Positions 12,726 through 29,728 of a DNA stretch of 64,000 bases are shown piece by piece (the stretch's first letter is position 1; the number at the start of each line of letters is the position of its first letter). The DNA is taken from NCBI GenBank assembly GCA_031424975.1, contig JANPIL010000141.1, positions 7,293-71,292 on the forward strand, in the 5' to 3' direction. The DNA is from Sphingobacteriales bacterium. Its GTDB lineage: Bacteria; Bacteroidota; Bacteroidia; Cytophagales; 172606-1. The translations under genes and the position numbers were made by a program. The notes beneath the pieces were generated by a model that was not told the origin of the DNA, searched no databases, and saw only the letters and a list, made by a program, of their open reading frames with translations.

Positions 12726-13529
12726 TTAGTCAATGAATACTTTGCGATGTCTCATGTCATGTTTAAATATTTCATCGGATTTCATTGTCTTACCCTTATA
12801 AATGTTTGAAGGTTTACACTTGTCGCAATTAATCACTCTATATACTAAGTTGTAGCCTTTGTGTTTTTTATTCTTTCCAACTACAACTCCTTTAATTATA
12901 CAGTCATAAGTTATGTAGTCAGTGAAAGCTGAATAAGAAAACAAAGTAGCACTATCAGTTCCGTCATGTCTGGATTGTTCTTTGAATGGGATTTTGATGG
13001 TGTCGCCTATATTCACTTTCTCAAAAATTTGTTTGAGTTCAGCTTCTTTTTTTATCATTTGCCGTTTTACCTCGTCAAAATATAGTTTGTCTGGCTCAAA
13101 CTCATTTGAATAACAAGTTATTTCCTTAGAAAATAGTCCTTTGTTATATGCTTGCAAATGAAGTTCTGGCAACTTATTAAATTGCTTTAATCGCTGTCTG
13201 TCAATTTTTTTTGGTGACATGAAGTCATAAGTTCCAGCGTACAGCATAATAATTTCAAGTGTATCGCATTTTTTTTGCAATTTGATTTTTGTCCGCTCAA
13301 ACCCAACCCAAGTAAAAAATAGAATTTGTATTTGTTGCGGTACTTCAATTTTAAATCTGCCGTTTAAATCTGTCCTGCCAAACAAAATTGTGTCTTTGTT
13401 TTGAATGTGGACGTCAGGTAGCGGCTCTAAGTCTTGTGAAATAACTCTTCCCCGAATAGTTCGGGTTTGTCCACACAGAATTGTGTCAAACAAAAGTAAA
13501 GTCGCTATAAAAATGACTGTAAGTTTCAC
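12726..13529 (-). CDS. Carboxypeptidase-regulatory-like domain protein (cassette ORF, array 1)
   Basis: Signal peptide, TIRGRVISQDLEPLP..TDLNGRF..FTWVGFE; GTG start 13529 just downstream of the attI-like GTT. Confidence 0.7.
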   Translation of the reverse strand: MKLTVIFIATLLLFDTILCGQTRTIRGRVISQDLEPLPDVHIQNKDTILFGRTDLNGRFKIEVPQQIQILFFTWVGFERTKIKLQKKCDTLEIIMLYAGTYDFMSPKKIDRQRLKQFNKLPELHLQAYNKGLFSKEITCYSNEFEPDKLYFDEVKRQMIKKEAELKQIFEKVNIGDTIKIPFKEQSRHDGTDSATLFSYSAFTDYITYDCIIKGVVVGKNKKHKGYNLVYRVINCDKCKPSNIYKGKTMKSDEIFKHDMRHRKVFID

Positions 13530-13543
13530 ATTAATATGTCTGC

Positions 13544-13567
13544 CAACTCTCAAATAGACGCAAGTTT
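13544..13567 (-). other. attI-like array head (array 1)
   Basis: CAACTCTCAAATAGACGCAAGTTT, identical to 26394-26417; on the - strand it ends in GTTG. Confidence 0.65.
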
Positions 13568-13920
13568 TGCGCCTCATCGCAATGTTAGTGAAAGGGGCTG
13601 AAGATACCAAAATACGGTGTCCATTTTTCCATAACCGTTTTACAATCAGTTGGATAAGCCCTTACGATTACTGCCAGGTTAAGTTGAACAATACAAAATG
13701 CGCATTGAGTACTAGACGGTGTTTATCGTTTTCGGCAATACAAAATACGCATTGCGGCAATGACACTATTTTGCCTGTCAGCAATACAATATGCGCAATA
13801 ATGCGTGCCGTCATTTCAGAGTGTCCAGCGGGCTTTTCGTATTCTTCAAATTCCTTTGGCTCACGCATATCTAATGCATCTTTCAAGAATAACCCCAAAA
13901 CCCCCGCCGACACCAGCAGG

Positions 13921-13949: not shown

Positions 13950-14030
13950 CCAAGGATGGTTTTGGGGTAGGCTGGCAATATGGAAAACGGGGACGTAATT
14001 TATGCCTGCCGCCATATTGCCAAACCAATG

Positions 14031-14939
14031 TCAGTGATGGCTTTTTATTTTATCTCCAATATAGTTCAAAGCCTCACCGTAAGTTTCAATTCCGTGTCCC
14101 ACATTGTTGAATACTTTTATTTCTTTCAAAAACCTTAAATGTTGTTTTGCATTTTCAATGGATTTTTGAAATGGAAAGAGCAAATCCTTGTCACCTTCGA
14201 TAAGGTAGGTTTCGGCTTTTACATCTGAGAGTTGCTTGTCCATGTAATATGGCTTTTGTGTCCTGTCCTTGTAGCGGCTTATTGCAAACACCTCATAGTC
14301 AACAAGCATTTTTTCCGAAAACACAGATAGCTTGTGATGGGGTTTTGAAAAAACGGCTTTATCCAAAAATTTCAACACATTCTTTTCCGTCGGGCTTACA
14401 ATGGGCAGCAAATTGAAATAAAGGTTTTTGAGTGTCATCGAAAAAGGTTGCAAACAGCCAGGATTCAGCAAAAAAGCCGACTTTATTTTTTCAGGCTTCA
14501 CTATTCCAAGTTTCATGCAGATGAGACCGCCAAATGAAGCTCCTGCAACAAATGCTTTTTCGATATTCAATTTGTCAAAAACTTCTGCCGCCCAAAAACC
14601 ATAGTCCAACGATTTGATTTCCGGGGTTGCCCCATCACTCAGATTGGGAAGGCCATTTGTTTCCACCATGAAGATTTTCATCTTATGGTTCAGGTTGTCA
14701 AGCCCTTTGTCAAAATCCCAAATCAAAGAGGTTGTTCTTGCACCCGGAAAAATCACCAATGTCTCAAGATGTTCCTCCTTTGTGTTGAGACCCCAGACAT
14801 GGGTGTTTCCAAGTGAAGTTTTTATTTCATAACGTTCATATTGCCTCCCGTTATTTTTCTCCAATTGTCTTACCCAACTTTCAAAATGCTCGAAGTCGGC
14901 CTTTTCATCTTTAAAACATGATTCTTTTTTTATTTCCAT
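14031..14939 (-). CDS. Alpha/beta hydrolase
   Basis: GASFGG nucleophile elbow, GDKD, GHG; lower GC. Confidence 0.85.
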   Translation of the reverse strand: MEIKKESCFKDEKADFEHFESWVRQLEKNNGRQYERYEIKTSLGNTHVWGLNTKEEHLETLVIFPGARTTSLIWDFDKGLDNLNHKMKIFMVETNGLPNLSDGATPEIKSLDYGFWAAEVFDKLNIEKAFVAGASFGGLICMKLGIVKPEKIKSAFLLNPGCLQPFSMTLKNLYFNLLPIVSPTEKNVLKFLDKAVFSKPHHKLSVFSEKMLVDYEVFAISRYKDRTQKPYYMDKQLSDVKAETYLIEGDKDLLFPFQKSIENAKQHLRFLKEIKVFNNVGHGIETYGEALNYIGDKIKSHH

Positions 14940-15019
14940 CGTCTTTCATGTTGGCGTTTTTTTGAAACACCCGCCTTTTTACAGTACCAGCCGTGCTTTT
15001 TGCTCGTTTGCCGGCAGGG

Positions 15020-15048
15020 GGTTTGGCCTTTTTGAAACATACTATTTT
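15020..15048 (-). repeat. Motif A copy overlapping the treS stop codon
   Basis: GGTTTGGCCTTTTTGAAACATACTATTTT. Confidence 0.9.
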
Positions 15049-18000
15049 GCCGCGTACTCGTCCATGATGTATTTGATGCCGCGAATCGGGATCACCACCC
15101 AGTCGGGGCGCATATTCAGCTCGTAGTTGAGTTCGTAAATCGCTTTTTCAAGGATGAAGATTTGCAGCATCAGGTCAACATCTTCCAAGGTGTCGGGCAG
15201 GAAATCCTGGCCGTTGGCGGTTTCCAGGTACGATTGCATGAAAAAGCCCGACACGTAGTGGAACCACTGCTCGGCCCACGTTTGCAGGTAGGCCACATCT
15301 TCGCGGCGCATTTTTTCGTCCTGAATCAGTTGGTAGAACGCCGCGTAGTGAAACGACCGGATCATGCCCGCCACGTCGCGCAGGGCGGAGCGTTTCAGGC
15401 GGCGTTCACTGAACGAACGTATTGGCTCGCCTTCGAAGTCAATGATGATGAAATCCTCGCCCGTAAACAGCACCTGGCCCAAGTGGTAGTCGCCGTGGTT
15501 GCGAATCTTGTTGGTGTTGAACTTGTGGCTGTACACGCGCTGCATGAATTTCAGGATGGCGGGCCGCATACCCAGCACTTCTTCGGCTTCGGCCCGCACC
15601 GATTCGGGCAGCGTGGACAGCTTTTTCTTCAGCAAATCAAACGAGCCGCGCACCTGCGCCACCAGCGACGAATACAGCGAACGCTGGTAGTGCAGCGAAT
15701 AGGCTTCCGGCTCAAAGCCTTTTTCCTCAGGATGCGAGGCAAGTGCCAAGTGCATTTCGGCGGTGCGCTGGCCCAGCAGCCGCACCCGCTCCACGTACGC
15801 GCCCCCGAGCAGTTGCTGCATTATTTCGGGAATCTGCTCGAACGTGACCGGCTTAGTGAGCATCCCCATGGGCGGCAGCACGTTTAAATGGCGGTTTTCG
15901 GTCAGTTTGCGGTCGAAGAACCGGCGCAGCACATCACCGAAGTACGTCCAGGCATCGCCTTGGTTAGGCACCAGTTCCTGCATCATGCCCAGCACCATGG
16001 GGTCGTGTTTGGCCTGCTGGTATTCAAGCGAACCGGCAAACTTGGGCACGTGCCTGAAATTGGTCTGCTCGGTCAGGAAGCGGGTTATTTCCAAATCGGG
16101 GTTGTAGGCGCGGTCCAGTTTGCGGTAAATCTTGAAGAAATACTTGTCGTCGAAAACCGCCGAGGTGTTGCTCTGCTCGGCATTCAATATCTTGGATTTC
16201 ACTACCTGCTTTTTGGTTCCACGCAGGGCTTTTTCCACGTCTTTGGTCACGTAGGCGTTCAGGTCGCCATCGCCCACGCGCATCTTGCGTTTCTGTGTCA
16301 TCAATGCGTACAGCACGTTGCGGAACTCTTCGCTGTACACGGCATCGTAGAGTATGCCTTTTTTGCCACCCACCAGCACCGGCACAATGATTGCCTTCGG
16401 GCTTTCGTCGCGGATTTTCCGTTCCTCGTCGCCAAAAGCCAGTGCCACCGGCAGCGAATACATTTCGGGCAGGCCTTCGTTATAGTTCACTTCCAGCACA
16501 AAAAACGCCGACTCGCTGCTCACCGTCGGGATGGTGATGTTTTCCACGACTTGCACCGTCTGGATTGTGCGGGCTTTGCCGCCAAACCAACGGCAACTGA
16601 GCAGGTAGGACGGGAATACCTTGTTTTCCAAGAACCGGATTTTCTTGGCTTCCGACAGTTCATCCCAATCCGAAAGTTCCAAGGCGGGCAGTTGGCTGTT
16701 GTCCCTTGCCGAAGCCGCCACCTCCACTTTTTTCAGTGCCAGCCAATAATAGCTGTGCGCGGTCAGCGTGAACAGGTAATCGTGATCCTTGATGGGGGGG
16801 AATGCGTTGTGGCTGAACACTTCAACGGGTTCGTAGCCCCGGTAAGCCGATAGGTCCAGTTCAACCGCCTGCGGGAAACGCGACAGGTTGGCCACCACCA
16901 GCATAGTCTCGCCTTCATAGGAACGGATGAAGGCCAGCACTTTTGAGTTGGTAGGGTTCAGGAAATGGATGTCGCCCCGGCTGAATGCCTTGTAACGCTT
17001 GCGCATATCAATGATGCGCTTGGTCCACCAGAGCAGCGAATTTTGGTTTTTCTGCTGGTTTTCCACGTTTACCGACCCGTACATATATTCCGGGTCGCTC
17101 ACTACGGGCAGGTACAGTTGCTGCGGGTTGGCCTTGGAGAAACCGGCATTGCGGTCGTCGTTCCATTGCATGGGAGTCCGCACACCGTCACGATCCTTGA
17201 GGAAATAATTGTCGCCCATACCGATTTCATCGCCATAATACACCACCGGTGTGCCGGGCAGCGAAAATAGCAGCACGTTCATCAGTTCTATCTTACGGCG
17301 GTTGTTGTCCATGAGCGGAGCCAGCCGGTGCCGGATGCCGAGGTTTATCTTGGCCTGCGGGTCTTTGGCATACACCTTATACATGTAGTCGCGTTCCTCG
17401 TCGGTCACCATTTCCAGCGTCAATTCGTCGTGGTTGCGCAAAAATACCGCCCACTGGCACGCATCGGGAATGGAAGGTGTCTGCTCAATGATGTTCATGA
17501 TCGGGTAGCGGTCTTCCATTTTCACCGACATGTACATCCTCGGCATAATCGGGAAGTTGTAGTTCATGTGGCATTCGTCGCCGTTGCCAAAGTAGCTTGC
17601 CGAATCTTCGGGCCACATATTGGCTTCGGCCAGAAACATCCGGCCCGGATAATTCTTGTCCATGTGGGCGCGCATTTTCTTCAAAAATGCGTGCGTTTCG
17701 GGCAGGTTCTCGCAGTTAGTGCCGTCGCGTTCAAACAAATAGGGCACGGCATCCACCCGGAAACCGTCCACACCCATGTCCATCCAATAGTCGAAAATCT
17801 TGAAAACCTCTTCTTGCACCTTCGGACTGTCGTAGTTCAGGTCGGGTTGGTGGTGGAAAAACCGGTGCCAGTAGTAGGCCTTCGCCACCGGATCCCAGGT
17901 CCAGTTGGAGGTTTCGGTGTCGGTGAAAATGATGCGTACGTCCTCGTATTTCTTGTCCGTGTCGCTCCACACGTAAAAATCGCGATTGACCGAGCCCTCC

Positions 18001-18380: not shown

Positions 18381-18403
18381 TGTATTGGTGAGGTGAGTAA
18401 CCG

Positions 18404-18432
18404 GGTTTGGGTGTTTTGAAAGATACTATTTT
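18404..18432 (-). repeat. Motif A copy
   Basis: GGTTTGGGTGTTTTGAAAGATACTATTTT. Confidence 0.92.
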
Positions 18433-18764
18433 GTGAAAATGCCGAATAGCTTTTTCGGTTTACGATTGGATTTTGTCTCCTTGTACTGTTTGTATTTTCC
18501 AAGGTCTTTCCACGCTTCACTGTACATTGCAACACGGTTTTTGGCAGCATCAATGTAATGACCGCCCAATCCGTGAAGTGTGTTCAGTAAGGACTTGAAA
18601 AAATAATCGTCTTTTTAATCTATTCTTTTCCATCGCGCATTTTTCGTGACCCTTGTTTTTCTGATAGTTTTTTACTGCTTTTTTGCAATCCAAATCTCAA
18701 TAGATTCCAATCTTTAACGTTGGATTCAGAAGATGTTCTCTTGTTGGCAAGTTTTGCATATCAG

Positions 18765-19195: not shown

Positions 19196-19224
19196 AAAAT
19201 AGTATCTTTCAAAAAGCCCAAACC
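19196..19224 (+). repeat. Motif A copy
   Basis: AAAATAGTATCTTTCAAAAAGCCCAAACC. Confidence 0.92.
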
Positions 19225-21356: not shown

Positions 21357-21568
21357 CGCCGGGTTTAAAAATGCTCCCAGCCATCCATTGGCCGCTAAAA
21401 ATAGCGGATAAAACGGAGCGAAAAACACGCACAAACGAAAAACCGCAAATGCCGCCACCCCGTTGCCGCAATGGCGGCGCACATTGGTTCCAAAGTGAGT
21501 GCATGCCGCTGAAAAATCCAATTTTTTCTTTAATTTTATCAATCCAAAATATGGTTTTTAAATCGCCC

Positions 21569-24277
21569 ATGAAAAAGACTTTTACCCTTTTGCCGCCCAC
21601 CGGGGTTTGGGCCTTCCTGCTGATACTATTTTCCGGCGGCTTTGCCGGGGCGCAGCACGCATTTCCCACCGGCTTTGCCGAAACCCGCATCACCGGCGGC
21701 CTCAACCCGACGGCCATGGCGTTTTCGCCGGATGGACGGCTTTTCATCTGCGACAAAAGCGGCAGGATACACATTGTGCGCAACGATGAGTTTCTTACCA
21801 CGCCATTTGTGGTGCTGCCCAACGTGGACGACTTCAATGAGCGGGGTTTGGGGGGCATTGCCTTCGACCCGGACTTTGCCAACAACGGCTATGTGTACCT
21901 GTATTACGCGGTCAAGGATGCGAACCACAACCGCATTGTGCGCCTTAAAGCCAGCGGCGATGCGGCGGTTCCCGGTTCGGAAGAGATTCTGGTGGAACTG
22001 GAACCCATGGCGGGCACCATCCACAACGGCGGCGCAATGGCGTTCGGCCCGGACGGCAAACTCTACGTTTCCATCGGCGATGGTGCCAACTCCGGCAGTG
22101 CGCAGTCCATGGACAGCAAATTGGGCAAGTTCCTGCGCATCAACGCCGACGGCTCCATCCCCACCGACAATCCGTTTTACAACTCCGCCACCGGCACCAA
22201 CCGCGCCATCTGGGCGTTGGGTTTCCGCAATTCGTTCACGTTTGCCATCCAGCCCGGCACCGGACGCATTTTTGCTAATGATGTGGGCGGCAGCTTGTCT
22301 GAGGAAATCAACGAGGTGGTGAAAGGCGGCAACTACGGCTGGAACCAGATAGAAGGCCCAAAACCCGCCAATACCGCCCCGCCCGCCAACTACCGCGACC
22401 CGGTGTATGCCTACGACCACGGCTTGGGCTGCTCGATTATCGGCGCGGCATTCTGCGATGCGGCCACCAATCGGTTTCCGGCCATTTACGCGGGCAAATA
22501 TTTCTTTGCGGATTATTGCAACGGCTACATCAAGGTGCTGAATCCGGCCAACGGACAGATTGAAAGCACGTTTGCGACGGGCATCAACCGCCCGGTGGAT
22601 TTTGAGTTTGCCAAGGATGGCTCGCTGTACTACCTCGAACGGGCGGGCATGGGCGGCGGCTCCATGCAAGACAACACCAGTACCAACAACGGCGCACTCT
22701 GGAAACTTACCTACACGGGCAGCGGCGCACCGGGCATGTCGCAGCAGCCCGCTTCCGTATTGGTTTCGGCGGGCGACAGCGCGGTGTTTTTTGTGGCGGC
22801 TTCGGGCAGCCGTCCGTTGACTTTTCAATGGCAGCGCGATGGCAACAACATTGCCGGAGCCACGCAAAGCAGCCATACTTTCAAAAATGCGGCACTGGCC
22901 GATAACAACGCCCAACTGCGCTGCGTGGTCACCAACGCCTTCGGCTCGGCTGCCAGCCACGCCGCCGCCCTGCAAGTAACCGCCGACAAACGGCCCGTGC
23001 CCACAATTACCACGCCGCTGGCCGGAGCCACCTACCGCGCTGGCGACACGCTGGCCTTTGCCGGAACCGTCCTTGACAACGAGGATGGAAACCTACCCGA
23101 CTCGGCGTACACGTGGTGGGTTGATTTCCACCACGACAGCCACGCGCACCCCGGACTTTCGCCTGTGAAAGGCATCCGGGCGGGGCAATTTGCGGTGCCG
23201 CGCTTCGGCGAGATTTCCGATAATGTCTGGTATCGGATTCATTTGCGAGCCATTGATAGCAAAGGACTCTCCCAAACGACTTTCACGGATGTGTATCCGC
23301 AAAAAACAACCCTGAAACTGGAAACTGAACCGGCGGGCATCGGCATCAACCTGGATGGCGAAATGCGTATTGCGCCCTACGAATTCAACAGCGTCAAAGG
23401 CATCACCCGAATTGTAGAGGCTCCGGTTTCGTATGCAAAAAACAATAACCTCTACGTATTCAAACAATGGAGTGGCGGCGCGGCTGGCCGTATCCTGACA
23501 TTTGCCACGCCCGATGTGCCAACCACCTACCGGGCTATTTTTGATGTGGTGCCGCTGGGCACAGGCAGCGGTCTGACGGGCAAGTATTACGACAATGGCC
23601 GACGCAACTTCACCGTACCGGTCACGGTGAAACGACTCGATGCCAATATTGACTTTACGTGGGGCAATAATTCGCCCGACCCGAAAATCAAACCCGACAA
23701 TTTCACCGCTTCGTGGAGCGGGCTGGTGCAGCCACTGTTTTCGGAAGAGTACACGTTTTACGCCACCGCCGACGATGGCGTGCGGCTTTGGGTGGACAAC
23801 AAACTGCTCGTGGACAAGTGGCAGTTGCAGGCGGCCACCGAATGGCAGGGCACGGTGACGCTTGAGGCGGGCAAAAAATACGAGTTGCGGCTGGACTACT
23901 TCGAGGAACTGTACGATGCGGTGGTAAAACTGGCATGGAGCAGCCGCCGCACGCCCAAACAAATCATTCCGGCCACGCAACTGTATCCGCTGGAGTTTGT
24001 GACCGCCACCGAACCACTTGTGGCAGCGGGCGGTTTCACGCTGTACCCGGTTCCCGCTGGTGATATTCTGAAAGTGAAAATAGTATCTTTGAAAACGGCC
24101 AAAGCCGACGTGTCGGTGTATAACACGCTGGGGCAGAAGCTATTGCAAACGCCGCAAAGCCTGAGAGCCGGTGAAAACACGTTTGAGATCAACACGCAAA
24201 ACCTCGCGCCGGGAATGTATCTCATAACCGTCAGCGGCCCAAGCGGCCCGCAAAGCAAGGCTTTCGTCAAGCGGTGA
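21569..24277 (+). CDS. PQQ-dependent sugar dehydrogenase-like beta-propeller plus Ig-like, PA14 and T9SS C-terminal domains
   Basis: ERGLGGIAFDPDF, HNGG..FGPDGKLY, ALGFRN; PA14 WSGLVQP..DDGVRLWVD; C-terminal LYPVPA..GMYLI. Confidence 0.85.
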   Translation: MKKTFTLLPPTGVWAFLLILFSGGFAGAQHAFPTGFAETRITGGLNPTAMAFSPDGRLFICDKSGRIHIVRNDEFLTTPFVVLPNVDDFNERGLGGIAFDPDFANNGYVYLYYAVKDANHNRIVRLKASGDAAVPGSEEILVELEPMAGTIHNGGAMAFGPDGKLYVSIGDGANSGSAQSMDSKLGKFLRINADGSIPTDNPFYNSATGTNRAIWALGFRNSFTFAIQPGTGRIFANDVGGSLSEEINEVVKGGNYGWNQIEGPKPANTAPPANYRDPVYAYDHGLGCSIIGAAFCDAATNRFPAIYAGKYFFADYCNGYIKVLNPANGQIESTFATGINRPVDFEFAKDGSLYYLERAGMGGGSMQDNTSTNNGALWKLTYTGSGAPGMSQQPASVLVSAGDSAVFFVAASGSRPLTFQWQRDGNNIAGATQSSHTFKNAALADNNAQLRCVVTNAFGSAASHAAALQVTADKRPVPTITTPLAGATYRAGDTLAFAGTVLDNEDGNLPDSAYTWWVDFHHDSHAHPGLSPVKGIRAGQFAVPRFGEISDNVWYRIHLRAIDSKGLSQTTFTDVYPQKTTLKLETEPAGIGINLDGEMRIAPYEFNSVKGITRIVEAPVSYAKNNNLYVFKQWSGGAAGRILTFATPDVPTTYRAIFDVVPLGTGSGLTGKYYDNGRRNFTVPVTVKRLDANIDFTWGNNSPDPKIKPDNFTASWSGLVQPLFSEEYTFYATADDGVRLWVDNKLLVDKWQLQAATEWQGTVTLEAGKKYELRLDYFEELYDAVVKLAWSSRRTPKQIIPATQLYPLEFVTATEPLVAAGGFTLYPVPAGDILKVKIVSLKTAKADVSVYNTLGQKLLQTPQSLRAGENTFEINTQNLAPGMYLITVSGPSGPQSKAFVKR
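21604..21632 (-). repeat. Motif A copy in a signal-peptide coding region
   Basis: GGTTTGGGCCTTCCTGCTGATACTATTTT; encodes GVWAFLLILFS. Confidence 0.8.
24077..24105 (+). repeat. Motif A copy in the T9SS C-terminal domain coding region
   Basis: AAAATAGTATCTTTGAAAACGGCCAAAGC; encodes KIVSLKTAKA. Confidence 0.85.
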
Positions 24278-24519
24278 AGCCTATTGGGTTTCTATTGCCC
24301 CGGTACGGTGATACCAAGGGCTTCTTTATTAGAGTTGATTTTGTCCTGCCGCAAAAACGTCTGACCGTGCTGGATATTTACCAACCAAATCTTTTGAAGG
24401 GGATGCAAGCAATAGAATTTCATGAGGCGTTTTGTAGTTTTTGTCAAGCCTCATGAAAGTTGTATTTTGATTGCTAAATTCCGTTTTTTAAGCTGTAACG
24501 TCGTCATTTGTAACCTGAC

Positions 24520-24652
24520 CGCTAACGGTTTAGAGGGTTTGCGATGGCGGGGAGTTTTAGCACTAAACTTCATTCGGAGAACCAAACTTCCACTTTGCAC
24601 AAAAGTGTCTGCGAAGCACGCAACCCCCGCTACTGAAAACCCCTTGTTAGTG
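24520..24652 (-). other. attC-like recombination site (array 2)
   Basis: CGCTAAC...GTTAGTG; arms GGGTTTGCGATGGCGGGG / CCCCGCTACTGAAAACCC; stop codon overlap. Confidence 0.7.
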
Positions 24653-25450
24653 GTTCGTTGTTTCATTGTCATCCATTTCACGTTTATATTCTTCTTTATA
24701 TTCACCGTGTTCGTCAAATTTACTTTGAAATTGTCGGTAGCTAATAAAACCGATAAACGGCTTAGAATGATTGTCACCAAGTGTTAATCTCAATTTCGTT
24801 TTGTAATTACCCTTAAAAATTGGAGCTAATGTCAGGATGCACTCATTTGGAGGGAGAATAAATGAGCCCACGCCATTACCACACTTATAAATAAACCTTT
24901 CTTGTATCGGTTTCCAATTTCCTAAAGTGTCCACTGCTTCCATTACAATAGGAACGTGGCTACCATAACCGATGAAAATAGTGTCAGTGTCCCGATTTGT
25001 TAGTATTACTGGATATAAGTTGGCTAATTTAATTGCTGTGTCAAGCTGAATTTCAATTTTAGATTGTGTCCAGTTTCTATAACTCCTTTCCTCGTCCCAT
25101 TCTATATAGTATTTTTTAAAGGAATTTTCAAGTTCAGTTATTTTTGTCCTATTACTCGTCTTTGCTCCTGAAGGCAAAGGTGGCGGAGGAGGAGGTGAGA
25201 AGTTAGTAAAAGGACTTAAATAAATGGTGTCTTTAACTTCTCCAATAAAGTAAAAATTGTAATTTGAAGTTGTTAGCCAATTAGGGTTTTCATCTTCAAA
25301 AAAATGCAAAAACTTGTCTACGCCAAAAGTGTCAAGCACCAAGGGAAAAGGTTGTAAATTGTCAGCCTCTTTTGCTGCTTCCTTTTTGTCAGTCTGACAA
25401 CCGATTAAAAAAAGTGTAGTCAGAAGAAATATTAGTTGAATTTGTCTCAT
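24647..25450 (-). CDS. Hypothetical lipoprotein (cassette ORF, array 2)
   Basis: Lipobox LIGC; AT-rich; TAA stop overlaps the attC-like end. Confidence 0.75.
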   Translation of the reverse strand: MRQIQLIFLLTTLFLIGCQTDKKEAAKEADNLQPFPLVLDTFGVDKFLHFFEDENPNWLTTSNYNFYFIGEVKDTIYLSPFTNFSPPPPPPLPSGAKTSNRTKITELENSFKKYYIEWDEERSYRNWTQSKIEIQLDTAIKLANLYPVILTNRDTDTIFIGYGSHVPIVMEAVDTLGNWKPIQERFIYKCGNGVGSFILPPNECILTLAPIFKGNYKTKLRLTLGDNHSKPFIGFISYRQFQSKFDEHGEYKEEYKREMDDNETTNH

Positions 25451-25472
25451 TTGTTGTCGTCTTTACAATGAC

Positions 25473-25670
25473 CGCTAACGGCTACGGCTTGGCGATGTGG
25501 CGGTATTTGAAAATCGTCAGCCTGTAACTGCTGTTGAATAAAGTTACAAAAAATGATGATTAAGAACTACAGCTCGGCGTTATTCGTCGGCTGGAACTGA
25601 AGCCGATTAGCGAACAAAAAGTTGAGAATATATTCGTCGCCCCGCCATATTGCCAAACCGAATGTTGCCT
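25473..25670 (-). other. attC-like recombination site (array 2)
   Basis: CGCTAAC...GTTGCCT; arms CGGCTTGGCGATGTGGCGG / CCGCCATATTGCCAAACCG. Confidence 0.72.
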
Positions 25671-25696
25671 GCTGGCGTTTTTCGTTAGCTTTTGAG

Positions 25697-26053
25697 TTAT
25701 TTTTTCCATTCTTTTATGCTGTAAGAGTCAATGATAGAGTCCTTTGTCAATTTTAATTGTAAAGACTTGGTGTAAACTGGGTCAATGTCAAAGCCATAAT
25801 CTGTTTCAATTTCGTAATAAACAATGTCGTTTTCTTTGTCGCTATAGTTTTCTGGTTCGCCAATTAAGTTTACTAATTGTCTGTAAGAAAGACCTGTTAG
25901 TTTATAATTCTTGGTCAAATCTTTCAGCATAGATTTTCTATGTGTGTAAATTCTCAAGTCGCCCTGTTCTTGCCATTTCGTTTTGTCAAACTTTTCATTA
26001 GAGTTACAAGATGTAAGAAAGATGCTAACTAAAAAAGTTATAAATACCTTCAT
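25697..26053 (-). CDS. Hypothetical lipoprotein (cassette ORF, array 2)
   Basis: Lipobox LTSC; 118 aa; AT-rich. Confidence 0.75.
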   Translation of the reverse strand: MKVFITFLVSIFLTSCNSNEKFDKTKWQEQGDLRIYTHRKSMLKDLTKNYKLTGLSYRQLVNLIGEPENYSDKENDIVYYEIETDYGFDIDPVYTKSLQLKLTKDSIIDSYSIKEWKK

Positions 26054-26349
26054 AATTTAGATTCCTTCTTTTTGTTAAACGAATAAATTCTTTCTGCAAC
26101 AAGTCCATAAAACAGGCAATTTAGAAATAGTCCAACAAAAAACATTGAGCCATTCATAAACTGAAAAAATAAAGTGTGTGTCGGAAAACGAAAGATGTAA
26201 AATAGTTTTTCAAGGGCTTTCACAATTATTCCATCGCCACCTGTTCCTTCATCTCTTGCTGCTGCTGCAACTAATGTTACAAAAGTCAAAATGCCACAAA
26301 TTATTGTCGTAATAAAGAATGTTTTGAAGTTGAATTTTGGAATTTTCAT
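26050..26349 (-). CDS. Small membrane protein (cassette ORF, array 2)
   Basis: Two transmembrane segments; ATGA overlap with the next gene; start at ATG 26349 downstream of the attI-like GTT. Confidence 0.65.
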   Translation of the reverse strand: MKIPKFNFKTFFITTIICGILTFVTLVAAAARDEGTGGDGIIVKALEKLFYIFRFPTHTLFFQFMNGSMFFVGLFLNCLFYGLVAERIYSFNKKKESKL

Positions 26350-26393
26350 TGCCTGTCTAAATGCAAATTGTGGTGTCGCACTACGCTTGCAGG

Positions 26394-26417
26394 CAACTCT
26401 CAAATAGACGCAAGTTT
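26394..26417 (-). other. attI-like array head (array 2)
   Basis: CAACTCTCAAATAGACGCAAGTTT, identical to 13544-13567. Confidence 0.65.
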
Positions 26418-26675
26418 ACGCTAGAACGTAAACATGTGTGCATTTTCAGGAAAATCAAAGTTTTTCCTGAAAATTCCGTACAAGTGTCTGATATTCAGAC
26501 TATTGCATTTATTGCCTGTATTCGTTGACCCATCGGCAATGCAAAATACGCTGGTTGCACTGTGCGTATTTCCATCCGGTTGGCAATACAAAATGCGTAC
26601 TTCGCAAAACGTATTGCCGTCGATGACGACAATACGTTTTGCGAAGTACGCATCAACTTGTTCAGCGGGCTTTTT

Positions 26676-27455
26676 TCAATTACGCTCGGCCCGGAAGTTT
26701 TTCAAACAATCCTGAATGGCCGAAGCCAGCGTGTATTCGTCCGATTCCACCACAAAATCCTCGGCCAGCTTGCAGTAAGCCATGAATTTTTCCAGTTCTT
26801 CGGTTTGCAGCCCCGTCACCTTCGCCACAAAATCGGGGTTCATCTTGGCTTTGTACACCCGCTGCCGGTTGTCGTTTTGCAGCATTTCCGTCAGTTTGCG
26901 TTTGGATTTTCCTTCCTTACTGAACCGGTCGTAGAGCTTGGTGATAGGCCCCGAAACGCCAACCCCCACGCCGCCGCTGCGGACCACATCCGAAAGCGTT
27001 GCCAGCCGGGGTATTTGCGGCAACTGCAAATCGGGCTGGTTGGGAAGCCGCAAGCCAAGCAAGTCCTTTTTGAACTGCTTTTCAGAATACGGGCGGATGG
27101 TGATTTCGTTGAGCTGGTACACTTTCTGCCGCATCACCGCCCGCACCGACACCTTGTCGGATGAATAGTACTTTGGCAGCACGTACACCGATTTTTCCAA
27201 GTTCACGGCCGTAAATTCCAGCGTATCGCCGCGCCGCACATGGATGGAGAAAAAACCGTTGTCGCCGCTGATGGTTCCCATGCGGCTGCGCGTGTTGGCT
27301 ACCGTCACGTAGGCGGCGGGTGTGAGGCTGTCGCGGTGCAGCGTGAAACCCTGTACCAGTACAAGCCCTTGGCTGCCGGGTTTTTGCTGCGCAAGCGCGA
27401 CGTTTGCCAGGCATAAACCGGCAAGCAGGATGAGAAACAATGGTCGTTGCATCAT
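26676..27455 (-). CDS. Carboxypeptidase-regulatory-like domain exported protein
   Basis: Signal peptide, GTISGDNGFFSI..GDTLEF, VYQLNEITI. Confidence 0.75.
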   Translation of the reverse strand: MMQRPLFLILLAGLCLANVALAQQKPGSQGLVLVQGFTLHRDSLTPAAYVTVANTRSRMGTISGDNGFFSIHVRRGDTLEFTAVNLEKSVYVLPKYYSSDKVSVRAVMRQKVYQLNEITIRPYSEKQFKKDLLGLRLPNQPDLQLPQIPRLATLSDVVRSGGVGVGVSGPITKLYDRFSKEGKSKRKLTEMLQNDNRQRVYKAKMNPDFVAKVTGLQTEELEKFMAYCKLAEDFVVESDEYTLASAIQDCLKNFRAERN

Positions 27456-27484
27456 AAAATAGTATGTTTTGAAAGTGCCAAACC
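27456..27484 (+). repeat. Motif A copy abutting a start codon
   Basis: AAAATAGTATGTTTTGAAAGTGCCAAACC. Confidence 0.9.
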
Positions 27485-27723
27485 CCCGGAAACGCCAAAC
27501 CCTGGTTGGCGCGGATGAATTGAAAAACGATGCGGGCTGCCTTATGCCATCGACCCGCACAGTCCGGGCATAACCACCATTTCCATGCCAAGCCAAACGG
27601 TTTTGCGCGTCCAAATATGAACTAAATCCGGCTTGCGCGGCCAGCATTTAACAACCTTTAACATTGGCCGCACCAACGGATATTTTCCCGCGCCTGCCTT
27701 CCGCTTGCAAAAATCTGTGCGGG

Positions 27724-29030: not shown

Positions 29031-29372
29031 TCATGTGATTGCTTCAACCCTGTCGCGGAATACATTGACAATCTTGCGGGTTTCGTTCAATTCCAACACT
29101 TGCGGCCACACTTGTGTAATCACATCGAACAATTCCTTCATTTTCACGTTGCCAATACGAATGTGAATCACTTTGGGCGGCGGTTCCTGAAAAAGCATCC
29201 GGTTAGAAAAATCGCTGTCCTTTGTGATGATAGTCAAGCTGTTTTCTTTGGCATAAGTCCAGATTCTCGCGTCTCTCCACTCATCATCAATGTCGCGTTG
29301 GTGCAGATAGTCATCGTTATTCCAAAGTGAGAAATAATAGGGCAGATTCACATCAATCAGGAATTCTGCCAT
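29031..29372 (-). CDS. DUF5615 PIN-like toxin
   Basis: FLIDVNLP..IITKDSDF..PPKVIHIRIGN; directly downstream of DUF433. Confidence 0.8.
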   Translation of the reverse strand: MAEFLIDVNLPYYFSLWNNDDYLHQRDIDDEWRDARIWTYAKENSLTIITKDSDFSNRMLFQEPPPKVIHIRIGNVKMKELFDVITQVWPQVLELNETRKIVNVFRDRVEAIT

Positions 29373-29383
29373 ACTCACCATAC

Positions 29384-29617
29384 TCACGCCACGGATTTAA
29401 TTACATACCCACGGTTCATCAGGTCGCTGGCAAACAGGATGCAGGCACCGATGTCCTCGGGTTCAAGAGAAGGATATTGGCGCAGAATTTCCTCCCTGCT
29501 CTCACCGGCACCCAGAAATTCAAGAACGGTTTGAACCGTAATCCGTTTTCCCCGGATGGTTGGTTTTCCATTGCAAAGTTGGTCGTCAATGGTGATCCGG
29601 TCGGTTATATACTCCAT
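29384..29617 (-). CDS. DUF433 antitoxin
   Basis: ITIDDQLCNGKPTIRGKRITV..EILRQYPSL..DIGAC. Confidence 0.9.
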   Translation of the reverse strand: MEYITDRITIDDQLCNGKPTIRGKRITVQTVLEFLGAGESREEILRQYPSLEPEDIGACILFASDLMNRGYVIKSVA

Positions 29618-29728
29618 TTCCGTAATTGTCTGCAAATGTGGTTGTCAATAACTGTAAAAACGGGTTGCCGCATTTCAAAGATAACCTAAATTTTGCCATT
29701 AGCGGGTTGGATTCGCCACAAAACCTAA

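Follow-up and report, generated by a model that had tools for sequence, protein, structure and literature searches.

What placed a run of co-oriented genes for predicted lipoproteins and a small membrane protein between long hairpin-like repeats, and could anything still move them? The genes lie in a 64,000-nucleotide stretch of the genome of a Sphingobacteriales bacterium (C141:7293-71292, hereafter the window), taken from an assembly of 4.6 Mb in 515 contigs (0.53 GC, 96.6% complete). Within it, array 2 runs on the minus strand over positions 24516-26674, in a low-GC island (0.31-0.45), and comprises an attI-like head, cassette 1 and cassette 2. Our main comparison genome is a congener (G003) with 89-94% nucleotide identity. 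Here, we propose that array 2 consists of two cassettes of a site-specific recombination system that resembles an integron and whose local recombinase gene has been lost, a reading to which we give a probability of about 0.8. The system is apparently widespread in Bacteroidota and undescribed, and the linked recombinase does without the hallmark IntI domain. The first-pass annotation, made from the letters and open reading frames (ORFs) of the window, had already called the region an integron-like cassette array. Cassette boundaries at GTT, pairing of each cassette head with the R'' box of the cassette's own site, a content differing from that of a close relative and the presence of both cassettes elsewhere all bear this out. 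Two features were absent from that annotation, namely the attI-like head with its recombinase remnant (26397-26674) and the complementarity between cassette head and own R''.

Cassette boundaries and turnover

Each cassette ends in an attC-like site that consists, on the minus strand, of an R'' box (...AAC), a spacer of 2-3 nt, a 19-nt L'' arm, a variable centre, an L' arm, a spacer of 5-7 nt and an R' box (GTT...). Both sites lie where they had first been placed (Table 1). The TAA stop of the lipoprotein gene in cassette 2 (24647-24649) falls inside the R'' sequence CACTAAC of the second site, and the repeated cassette start, GTTAGCGGTCA, occurs exactly twice in the 64-kb window (24516-24526 and 25469-25479, both on the minus strand), as had been noted. 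The head of cassette 1, GTTGCCTGC (26389-26397), is the exact reverse complement (9/9) of the R'' box of its own site, GCAGGCAAC (25664-25672), and the adjacent R' box, GTTAGCGGT, is not. Between the head of cassette 2 and its own R'', ACCACTAAC, the match is 8 of 9 in array 2 and 9 of 9 in a homologous array (L139). On average, R'' matches the upstream head at 8.5 of 9 positions (four sites scored) versus 5.1 of 9 for the adjacent R' (14 sites). Genome-wide, an exact 9-mer partner lies 580-1040 nt upstream for 6 of 18 sites, and for about 11 when one mismatch is allowed; equal-sized control windows downstream contain no exact partner. Such a match arises when a circular cassette, with its site running R''...R', is opened at G|TT within R' and then inserted, as in integrons. 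The signature of a circular intermediate, a head derived from the cassette's own site, is thus present at array 2.

This box matching also bears on the view that the sites are palindromic repeats, akin to miniature inverted-repeat transposable elements (MITEs) or repetitive extragenic palindromic (REP) elements, that spread into intergenic spacers around immobile genes. About 30 copies are indeed found over more than 20 contigs, and the genome does hold a truly abundant 30-nt repeat, with some 1300 copies. Terminal inverted repeats, however, would give the opposite result, with the two end boxes of a site resembling each other more closely than R'' resembles the upstream head. Furthermore, gene and site travel together with boundaries at GTT, and every site is co-oriented with the genes. 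Contradicted by both the box matching and the joint movement, this explanation was rejected as barely credible.

Comparison with relatives shows the same boundaries. In the congener, flanking gene, remnant and head are all present, 89-94% identical up to GAGAGTTG, and identity stops right after; the first cassette of the congener encodes a 469-aa secreted DUF4932 protein, with an attC-like site behind it. Coding DNA of array 2 is missing from 12 relatives, in which the sites alone match, and three more distant congeners have no array at this place, the genes on either side of the island being separated by about 250 nt. Cassette 2 recurs in two other arrays (L139 and L137) at 74-84% nucleotide identity, 83.7% in L137. 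In L139, the order is recombinase, a Fic cassette and the cassette 2 homologue, and homology to the window starts exactly at 25479, the G of GTTAGCGG, and ends at 24636. A copy of cassette 1 with 87% identity (26379 to 25594) belongs to an array of five sites on a contig from a metagenome (L140), where a ParDE cassette is present as well; there, the partner of gene b is 79 aa long with the same 4-nt overlap, and the two-gene arrangement is kept. Content thus varies, as judged from the different cassette in the congener and the recurrence elsewhere, and each cassette, with its boundaries kept in the other arrays, behaves as a mobile unit in its own right. The strain comparison that the first-pass annotation had proposed for content variation thus yields a different first cassette after the same head.

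Architecture of the attC-like sites

The two sites of array 2, 133-198 nt long, are homologous to each other and to those of a second array in the window (array 1). Two half-site profiles find about 25 sites on about 20 contigs of the source genome, and BLAST adds 5 contigs with the short type represented by site 24520-24652. Copies of site 25473-25670 that are 85-86% identical occur in the congener, and short-type sites occur on 5 other contigs of the source genome as well as downstream of a second recombinase gene of the congener, intB. A generic scan of the window for AAC...GTT hairpins was abandoned as too unspecific, since it returned dozens of chance matches with the real sites among them.

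In site 25473-25670, L'' (25642-25660) and L' (25485-25503) are set off by the spacers ATT and TAGCC and form 17 of 19 stem pairs; position 4 of the stem is T.G and position 13 an A.C mismatch. In site 24520-24652, L'' (24625-24643) and L' (24534-24552, spacer CTAAACC) form 16 of 19, and the position-13 mismatch is again present. Compared with shuffled sequences, the first folds with z scores of -3.61 (plus strand) and -2.25 (minus strand), and the second with -2.97 and -1.90, respectively. The boxes fit the ...AAC and GTT... ends of attC sites, and the purine/pyrimidine pattern RYYYAAC / GTTRRRY is followed only loosely.

Covariation was assessed by splicing R'', L'', L' and R' from 22 sites and counting pairs in the 19-bp stem. 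Pairing reaches 86.8% of cells versus 63.1% in shuffles and 29-49% in slid controls, the first figure being inflated by the choice, for each site, of the spacer lengths that give maximal pairing. At 16 of the 19 stem pairs both sides vary, and the covariation score of 0.602 versus 0.181 was matched by none of 500 shuffles. The arm sequences thus vary among sites (TGTGCAAG, GCTGCAAT, GGCAATATGG, GGCGTTATTG) yet remain complementary, which therefore points to selection on pairing and implies a hairpin or cruciform. An unpaired A.C mismatch stands at position 13 in 18 of the 22 sites, a T.G wobble is the usual state of position 4, and both sites of array 2 conform to this. L'' and L' do not differ in length (19 versus 19), and there are no extrahelical or bulged bases in the stems.

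Two sites, one near the end of contig C302 and one at C492:6283-6487, are hybrids in which L'' and L' belong to different sequence types, with 11-13 of 19 pairs. Their composition suggests homologous recombination within the conserved site centre, besides exchange at GTT.

The attI-like head and the linked recombinase

The head of array 2 terminates in ...CTATTTGAGAG|TTG (GAGAG|TTG), its junction with the first cassette lying at a GTT triplet, and identity to both the congener and array 1 stops exactly at this junction, as expected of an attI site. It is homologous to 13523-13850 of array 1 and contains direct 17-nt boxes, GCG(T/C)ATTTTG(C/T)ATTGCC, at plus-strand positions 26535-26557 and 26582-26604. 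Further copies lie on at least 4 other contigs of the genome, giving at least 11 heads when junction-only matches are counted; each leads into low-GC DNA and all are without a recombinase gene. In the congener (G003:C167), the same head directly follows the stop codon of a recombinase gene, intA, starting inside its last codons (..IKSPLDTLN*). At array 2 we find no recombinase gene, only a 26-nt remnant that reads AAAAGCCCGCTGAACAAGTTGATG and begins 2 nt past the flanking-gene stop codon (26676-26678), a junction also present in the congener. Both arrays of the window appear to retain only the last codons of the recombinase gene, a homology that we treat as putative because the match is short. 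On another contig of the source genome (C492), a 56-aa recombinase fragment is followed by GAGAGTTGGCTGC and then by cassettes with a 9/9 match between head and R''. A perfect palindrome within the array 2 head is specific to the source genome, being missing from the orthologous head of the congener. An Rfam search returned only chance hairpin matches, at this palindrome, and Rfam has no attC model.

Upstream of the array-1 head, between it and treS, a low-GC gene resembling alpha/beta hydrolases (14031-14939) is followed by half of an attC-like hairpin (13950-14045). In sister-population contigs, treS directly precedes genes for a single-stranded DNA-binding protein (SSB) and a recombinase; the hydrolase-like gene thus resembles an insertion upstream of the platform.

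At its array-1 locus, the congener carries an SSB gene and intA, which encodes a tyrosine recombinase of 354 aa. It also has a second complete platform (L035, G003:C172 4488-8216), with the 477-aa intB, which has a long N-terminal extension, followed by two cassettes and then chromosomal genes. There, GTTAGCGGTCATGC... / GTTAGCGGTCA lies 65 nt past the intB stop codon, and the second cassette shows a 9/9 match of head and R'' and a short-type site like 24520-24652. On the integron-integrase model TIGR02249, intA and intB reach 180-198 bits, below the cut-off of 265, with similar scores on archaeal XerA and XerC/D; no protein of the source genome or of 30 relatives reaches 265 bits. In an alignment to the Vibrio cholerae integrase VchIntIA (PDB 2A3V), the linked recombinase lacks the IntI-specific insert, because it has 25 residues there versus 68. 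Its predicted structure (mean predicted local distance difference test score, pLDDT, 78) matches VchIntIA and XerA about equally, the best PDB sequence matches are archaeal XerA, and the model contains an extra N-terminal beta-beta-alpha-beta-beta-alpha domain of about 60 residues. The family is very large, with thousands of protein clusters whose database names are limited to "site-specific integrase" or "XerD". In one scan of species genomes, 541 relatives were confirmed, 60-80% identical, in several Bacteroidota orders. Among the best 80 of these 541, an SSB gene is adjacent in about 50, and attC-like matches lie downstream on the same strand in about 30, as judged with narrow site profiles.

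These data also address whether a known enzyme would suffice. In an ordinary attC-site cluster that has no integron integrase (CALIN), array 2 would consist of classical attC sites left behind or serviced by a canonical IntI. The layout is classical in its AAC/GTT boxes, imperfect inverted repeats, stop codon inside R'' and short 5' leaders, the genes belong to no known families, sister arrays hold toxin-antitoxin cassettes, and the linked recombinases do reach 180-198 bits on TIGR02249. Nevertheless, the genomes surveyed offer no protein at or above the integrase cut-off, the recombinase joined to the head is without the IntI insert, the stems are without bulged bases, and the integron literature holds Bacteroidota to be nearly or wholly devoid of integrons. 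We therefore consider a classical CALIN improbable. In a further alternative, the host XerC/XerD would exchange modules at dif-like sites, in the manner of pdif modules on Acinetobacter plasmids. Xer and IntI are equally close to the linked recombinase, archaeal XerA provides its best PDB matches, and the source genome has two Xer-like genes (on C178 and C263). Yet the sites are covarying hairpins of 133-198 nt in direct orientation instead of 28-bp alternating sites, and the gene to which the heads are attached is not a housekeeping Xer gene but encodes a dedicated recombinase that has spread horizontally and is accompanied by an SSB gene. The length, direct orientation and covariation of the sites led us to reject pdif-type modules, which we regard as very improbable.

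How, then, could an integron-like array without a local recombinase change its content? An intA relative that is intact, 95% identical and accompanied by an SSB gene, with the catalytic motif GLRHSF, is present at the array-1 locus in six public contigs from sister populations. The recombinase loss at array 2 is common to two genomes with different first cassettes, and we therefore infer trans action on orphan heads. In the mechanism that we propose, the recombinase would join the site of a circular cassette to the head at G|TT, and cassettes at array 2 would be exchanged by recombinase supplied in trans, for which the intact copy 10 kb away at the array-1 locus of sister populations is a candidate source. 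The hairpin arms would be used as folded single-stranded DNA, as in integrons, with the T.G at position 4 and the A.C at position 13 as strand markers, a role that extrahelical bases have in classical attC sites. The SSB may modulate this folding, and the 17-nt boxes of the head may be bound by the extra N-terminal domain of the recombinase. We slightly favour the broader view of a distributed, Bacteroidota-wide integron with many orphan landing pads, array 2 among them, in which a Xer/IntI-like recombinase that has an arm-binding-like N-terminal domain, no IntI insert and a dedicated SSB would move cassettes in trans between several attI-like heads per genome, at hairpin sites whose strand is marked by a conserved mismatch and not by extrahelical bases. 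Such a system would represent a second, independently specialised integron class, in a phylum considered to be without integrons.

Alternatively, array 2 could be an inert fossil of the same origin, immobile since the recombinase was lost, with the difference from the congener reflecting old events or RecA-dependent deletions between sites that resemble each other. The assembly contains no intact family member, none of the at least 11 attI-like heads has a recombinase gene, the hybrid sites point to homologous exchange, and the R'' of cassette 2 has drifted from its head (8/9, compared with 9/9 in L139). Set against this, the loss is common to the congener, yet the first cassette differs, and differs exactly at GTT; sister populations retain an intact recombinase 10 kb away; and the assembly is fragmented, multi-copy genes being those most often dropped from such assemblies. 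We consider the fossil doubtful, although clearly more probable than the alternatives above.

Several points weigh against an array of mobile cassettes served by such a recombinase. The source assembly contains no intact recombinase of the family, only the 56-aa fragment, and therefore the array may now be frozen. In the intA copy of the congener (L036, G003:C167 3479-4543), the second catalytic Arg is replaced by Ser (GLSHNF), and this copy may be inactive or contain a sequencing error. The presumed remnant at 26649-26674 is short, only 26 nt. Both strands of the sites fold about equally, and the folding strand and any use of single-stranded DNA are not readable from the sequence; the pairing percentage, moreover, is inflated by the choice of spacers. 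Finally, the differing first cassettes could instead have come about if an originally longer array lost different cassettes in the two lineages, or through homologous recombination of sites that resemble each other; two hybrid sites with non-matching arms do exist.

Cargo, surroundings and relation to known systems

Cassettes of array 2 hold one or two promoterless-looking genes (Table 1). The two-gene unit in cassette 1 is present as first annotated, with the ATGA overlap at 26050-26053 on the minus strand. The description of the cargo as lipoprotein and membrane proteins stands, with two lipobox proteins (LTSC and LIGC) and one small membrane protein, but three proteins are too few to establish the claimed enrichment or the proposed surface-variation reservoir. 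Homologues of gene b form 28 clusters, most of them located on short contigs or in arrays of small genes that share one orientation, and those of the cassette 2 gene form about 50, all hypothetical proteins of Bacteroidota. Gene b matched no Pfam family, and exact-protein look-ups of both lipoproteins returned no record. Scans for sigma-70-type promoters and terminators gave counts not above those of shuffles. The Bacteroidota -7 motif TAnnTTTG is found neither in the attI-like head nor just upstream of any cassette gene; its sole match, at 24715-24722, falls within the coding sequence of cassette 2.

At the distal end, a truncated cassette indicating decay had been proposed. The 18-codon ORF beyond the last GTTAGCGGTCA exists, but the proposal is unsupported, because GTTAGCGGTCA is simply the consensus R' box of the site family, and the 240 nt beyond it have no homologue in the source genome or in any compared locus (the congener's assembly is without that side). 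A truncated cassette, the right side of an old attI site and native spacer are all candidates for this flank.

Table 1. Positions of array 2 features and of the adjoining genes in the window.
Feature	Positions	Strand	Description
Gene on one side of the island	21371-24277	+	Convergent; 968-aa secreted protein with sugar dehydrogenase, PA14 and type-IX secretion tail domains
Distal flank	24278-24515		Unique sequence to the stop of the 968-aa gene; hairpin at 24418-24460; contains the 18-codon ORF
Terminal R' box closing the array	24516-24526	-	GTTAGCGGTCA; same 11-mer after intB in the congener, and at the start of cassette 2 and of homologous cassettes
attC-like site of cassette 2, short type	24520-24652	-	R'' 24646-24654, with the TAA stop of the gene; R' GTTAGCG 24520-24526
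Cassette 2	24526-25478	-	953 nt; head including G at 25479, GTTAGCGGT
Cassette 2 gene	24647-25450	-	267-aa predicted lipoprotein, MRQIQLIFLLTTLFLIGC, with lipobox LIGC; matches no family
attC-like site of cassette 1	25473-25670	-	R'' AGGCAAC 25664-25670 (9-nt box 25664-25672); R' GTTAGCG 25473-25479
Cassette 1	25479-26396	-	918 nt; head including G at 26397, GTTGCCTGC; ends at G of the next GTT (25479)
Cassette 1 gene b	25697-26053	-	118-aa predicted lipoprotein, MKVFITFLVSIFLTSC, lipobox LTSC; start overlaps the gene a stop (ATGA)
Cassette 1 gene a	26050-26349	-	99-aa small membrane protein, two hydrophobic stretches; no family match
attI-like head	26397-26674	-	About 280 nt; ends ...AAACTTGCGTCTATTTGAGAG, G at 26397
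Perfect palindrome, 29-nt arms	26593-26653		Inside the head; inverted duplication of one 17-nt box
Putative recombinase remnant, 3' end	26649-26674	-	AAAAGCCCGCTGAACAAGTTGATGCG, reads K-S-P-L-N-K-L-M; aligned to the last codons of intA
Gene on the other side of the island	26676-27455	-	Co-oriented; weak sub-threshold match to a CarboxypepD_reg-like domain; stop codon 26676-26678

Elsewhere in the window, an element of about 30 nt, GGGTTTGG..TTTTGAAA.ATACTATTTT or its complement, occupies most intergenic spacers (15019-15049, 18403-18433, 19196-19224, 24077-24106, 27456-27487 and others), with one copy within the 968-aa gene, in the part that codes for the C-terminus. The 15-nt core of the element has about 1300 copies in the 4.6 Mb genome and is equally abundant in the congener; REP-like and promoter-associated elements are candidates for its nature. 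Positions 43000-64000 form a 21-kb block with a GC content of 0.37-0.48, a strongly negative GC skew and all larger ORFs on the minus strand. The site profiles find no attC-like sites in this block, a possible cluster of accessory genes, for polysaccharide or otherwise. At 29031-29635, in a patch of lower GC, two small minus-strand ORFs of 118 and 83 aa overlap and look toxin-antitoxin-like from the ORF listing alone.

Classical integrons (class 1 and the chromosomal integron of Vibrio cholerae) resemble the array-2 system in their co-oriented cassettes of mostly unknown function, imperfect palindromic AAC/GTT sites, GTT junction, cassette head derived from the cassette's own far-end site, platform beside a tyrosine recombinase gene and rapid turnover. 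They differ in several respects. The recombinase of the array-2 system is without the IntI insert, scores below the cut-off, carries the extra N-terminal beta/alpha domain of about 60 residues and is usually paired with an SSB; it is co-oriented with the cassettes, and the platform site begins at the 3' end of its gene. The stems of this system have a conserved mismatch and wobble and no extrahelical bases, and a genome contains many small arrays and orphan heads instead of one array. Like a CALIN, array 2 has two sites less than 4 kb apart and no recombinase gene nearby, but it keeps an attI-like head and a recombinase remnant. Xer recombinases, archaeal XerA and bacterial XerCD, are about as similar in their core to the linked recombinase as IntI is, whereas Xer acts on short duplex sites to resolve chromosome dimers and the sites of array 2 are long covarying hairpins that bound mobile cassettes. 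Inverted-integrase integrons, reportedly described by Boucher et al. in 2007 (for example in Treponema denticola), are said to have the integrase co-oriented with the cassettes, an orientation that the array-2 system shares; theirs, unlike ours, is a true IntI with the insert. We know of no reports of such integrons with an SSB or in Bacteroidota.

The account of IntegronFinder 2.0 gives a complete integron in one Bacteroidetes genome only, that of Salinibacter, and a 2024 preprint places Bacteroidota among the clades lacking integrons. A classification of tyrosine recombinases states that the insert is not conserved across the whole integron-like subgroup and gives such members no function. 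Our own search of the literature outside subscription journals found no account of a system of the array-2 type.

Integrons are defined and searched for via the IntI insert and the extrahelical bases of attC, and the array-2 system works like an integron but lacks both of these defining features. Should a large family of insert-free recombinases serve cassette arrays across Cytophagales, Saprospiraceae, Chitinophagales, Sphingobacteriales and Flavobacteriales, current tools probably miss much of the cassette pool of soil and freshwater Bacteroidota. The system also offers a natural comparison, in which a tyrosine recombinase might read a folded site and choose the strand by a mismatch instead of by flipped-out bases, and a case in which the platform appears to include a dedicated SSB. 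Furthermore, trans action on multiple orphan platform sites becomes directly testable. For the source organism, a system of the array-2 type accounts for several low-GC islets of orphan lipoprotein and membrane genes in its genome.

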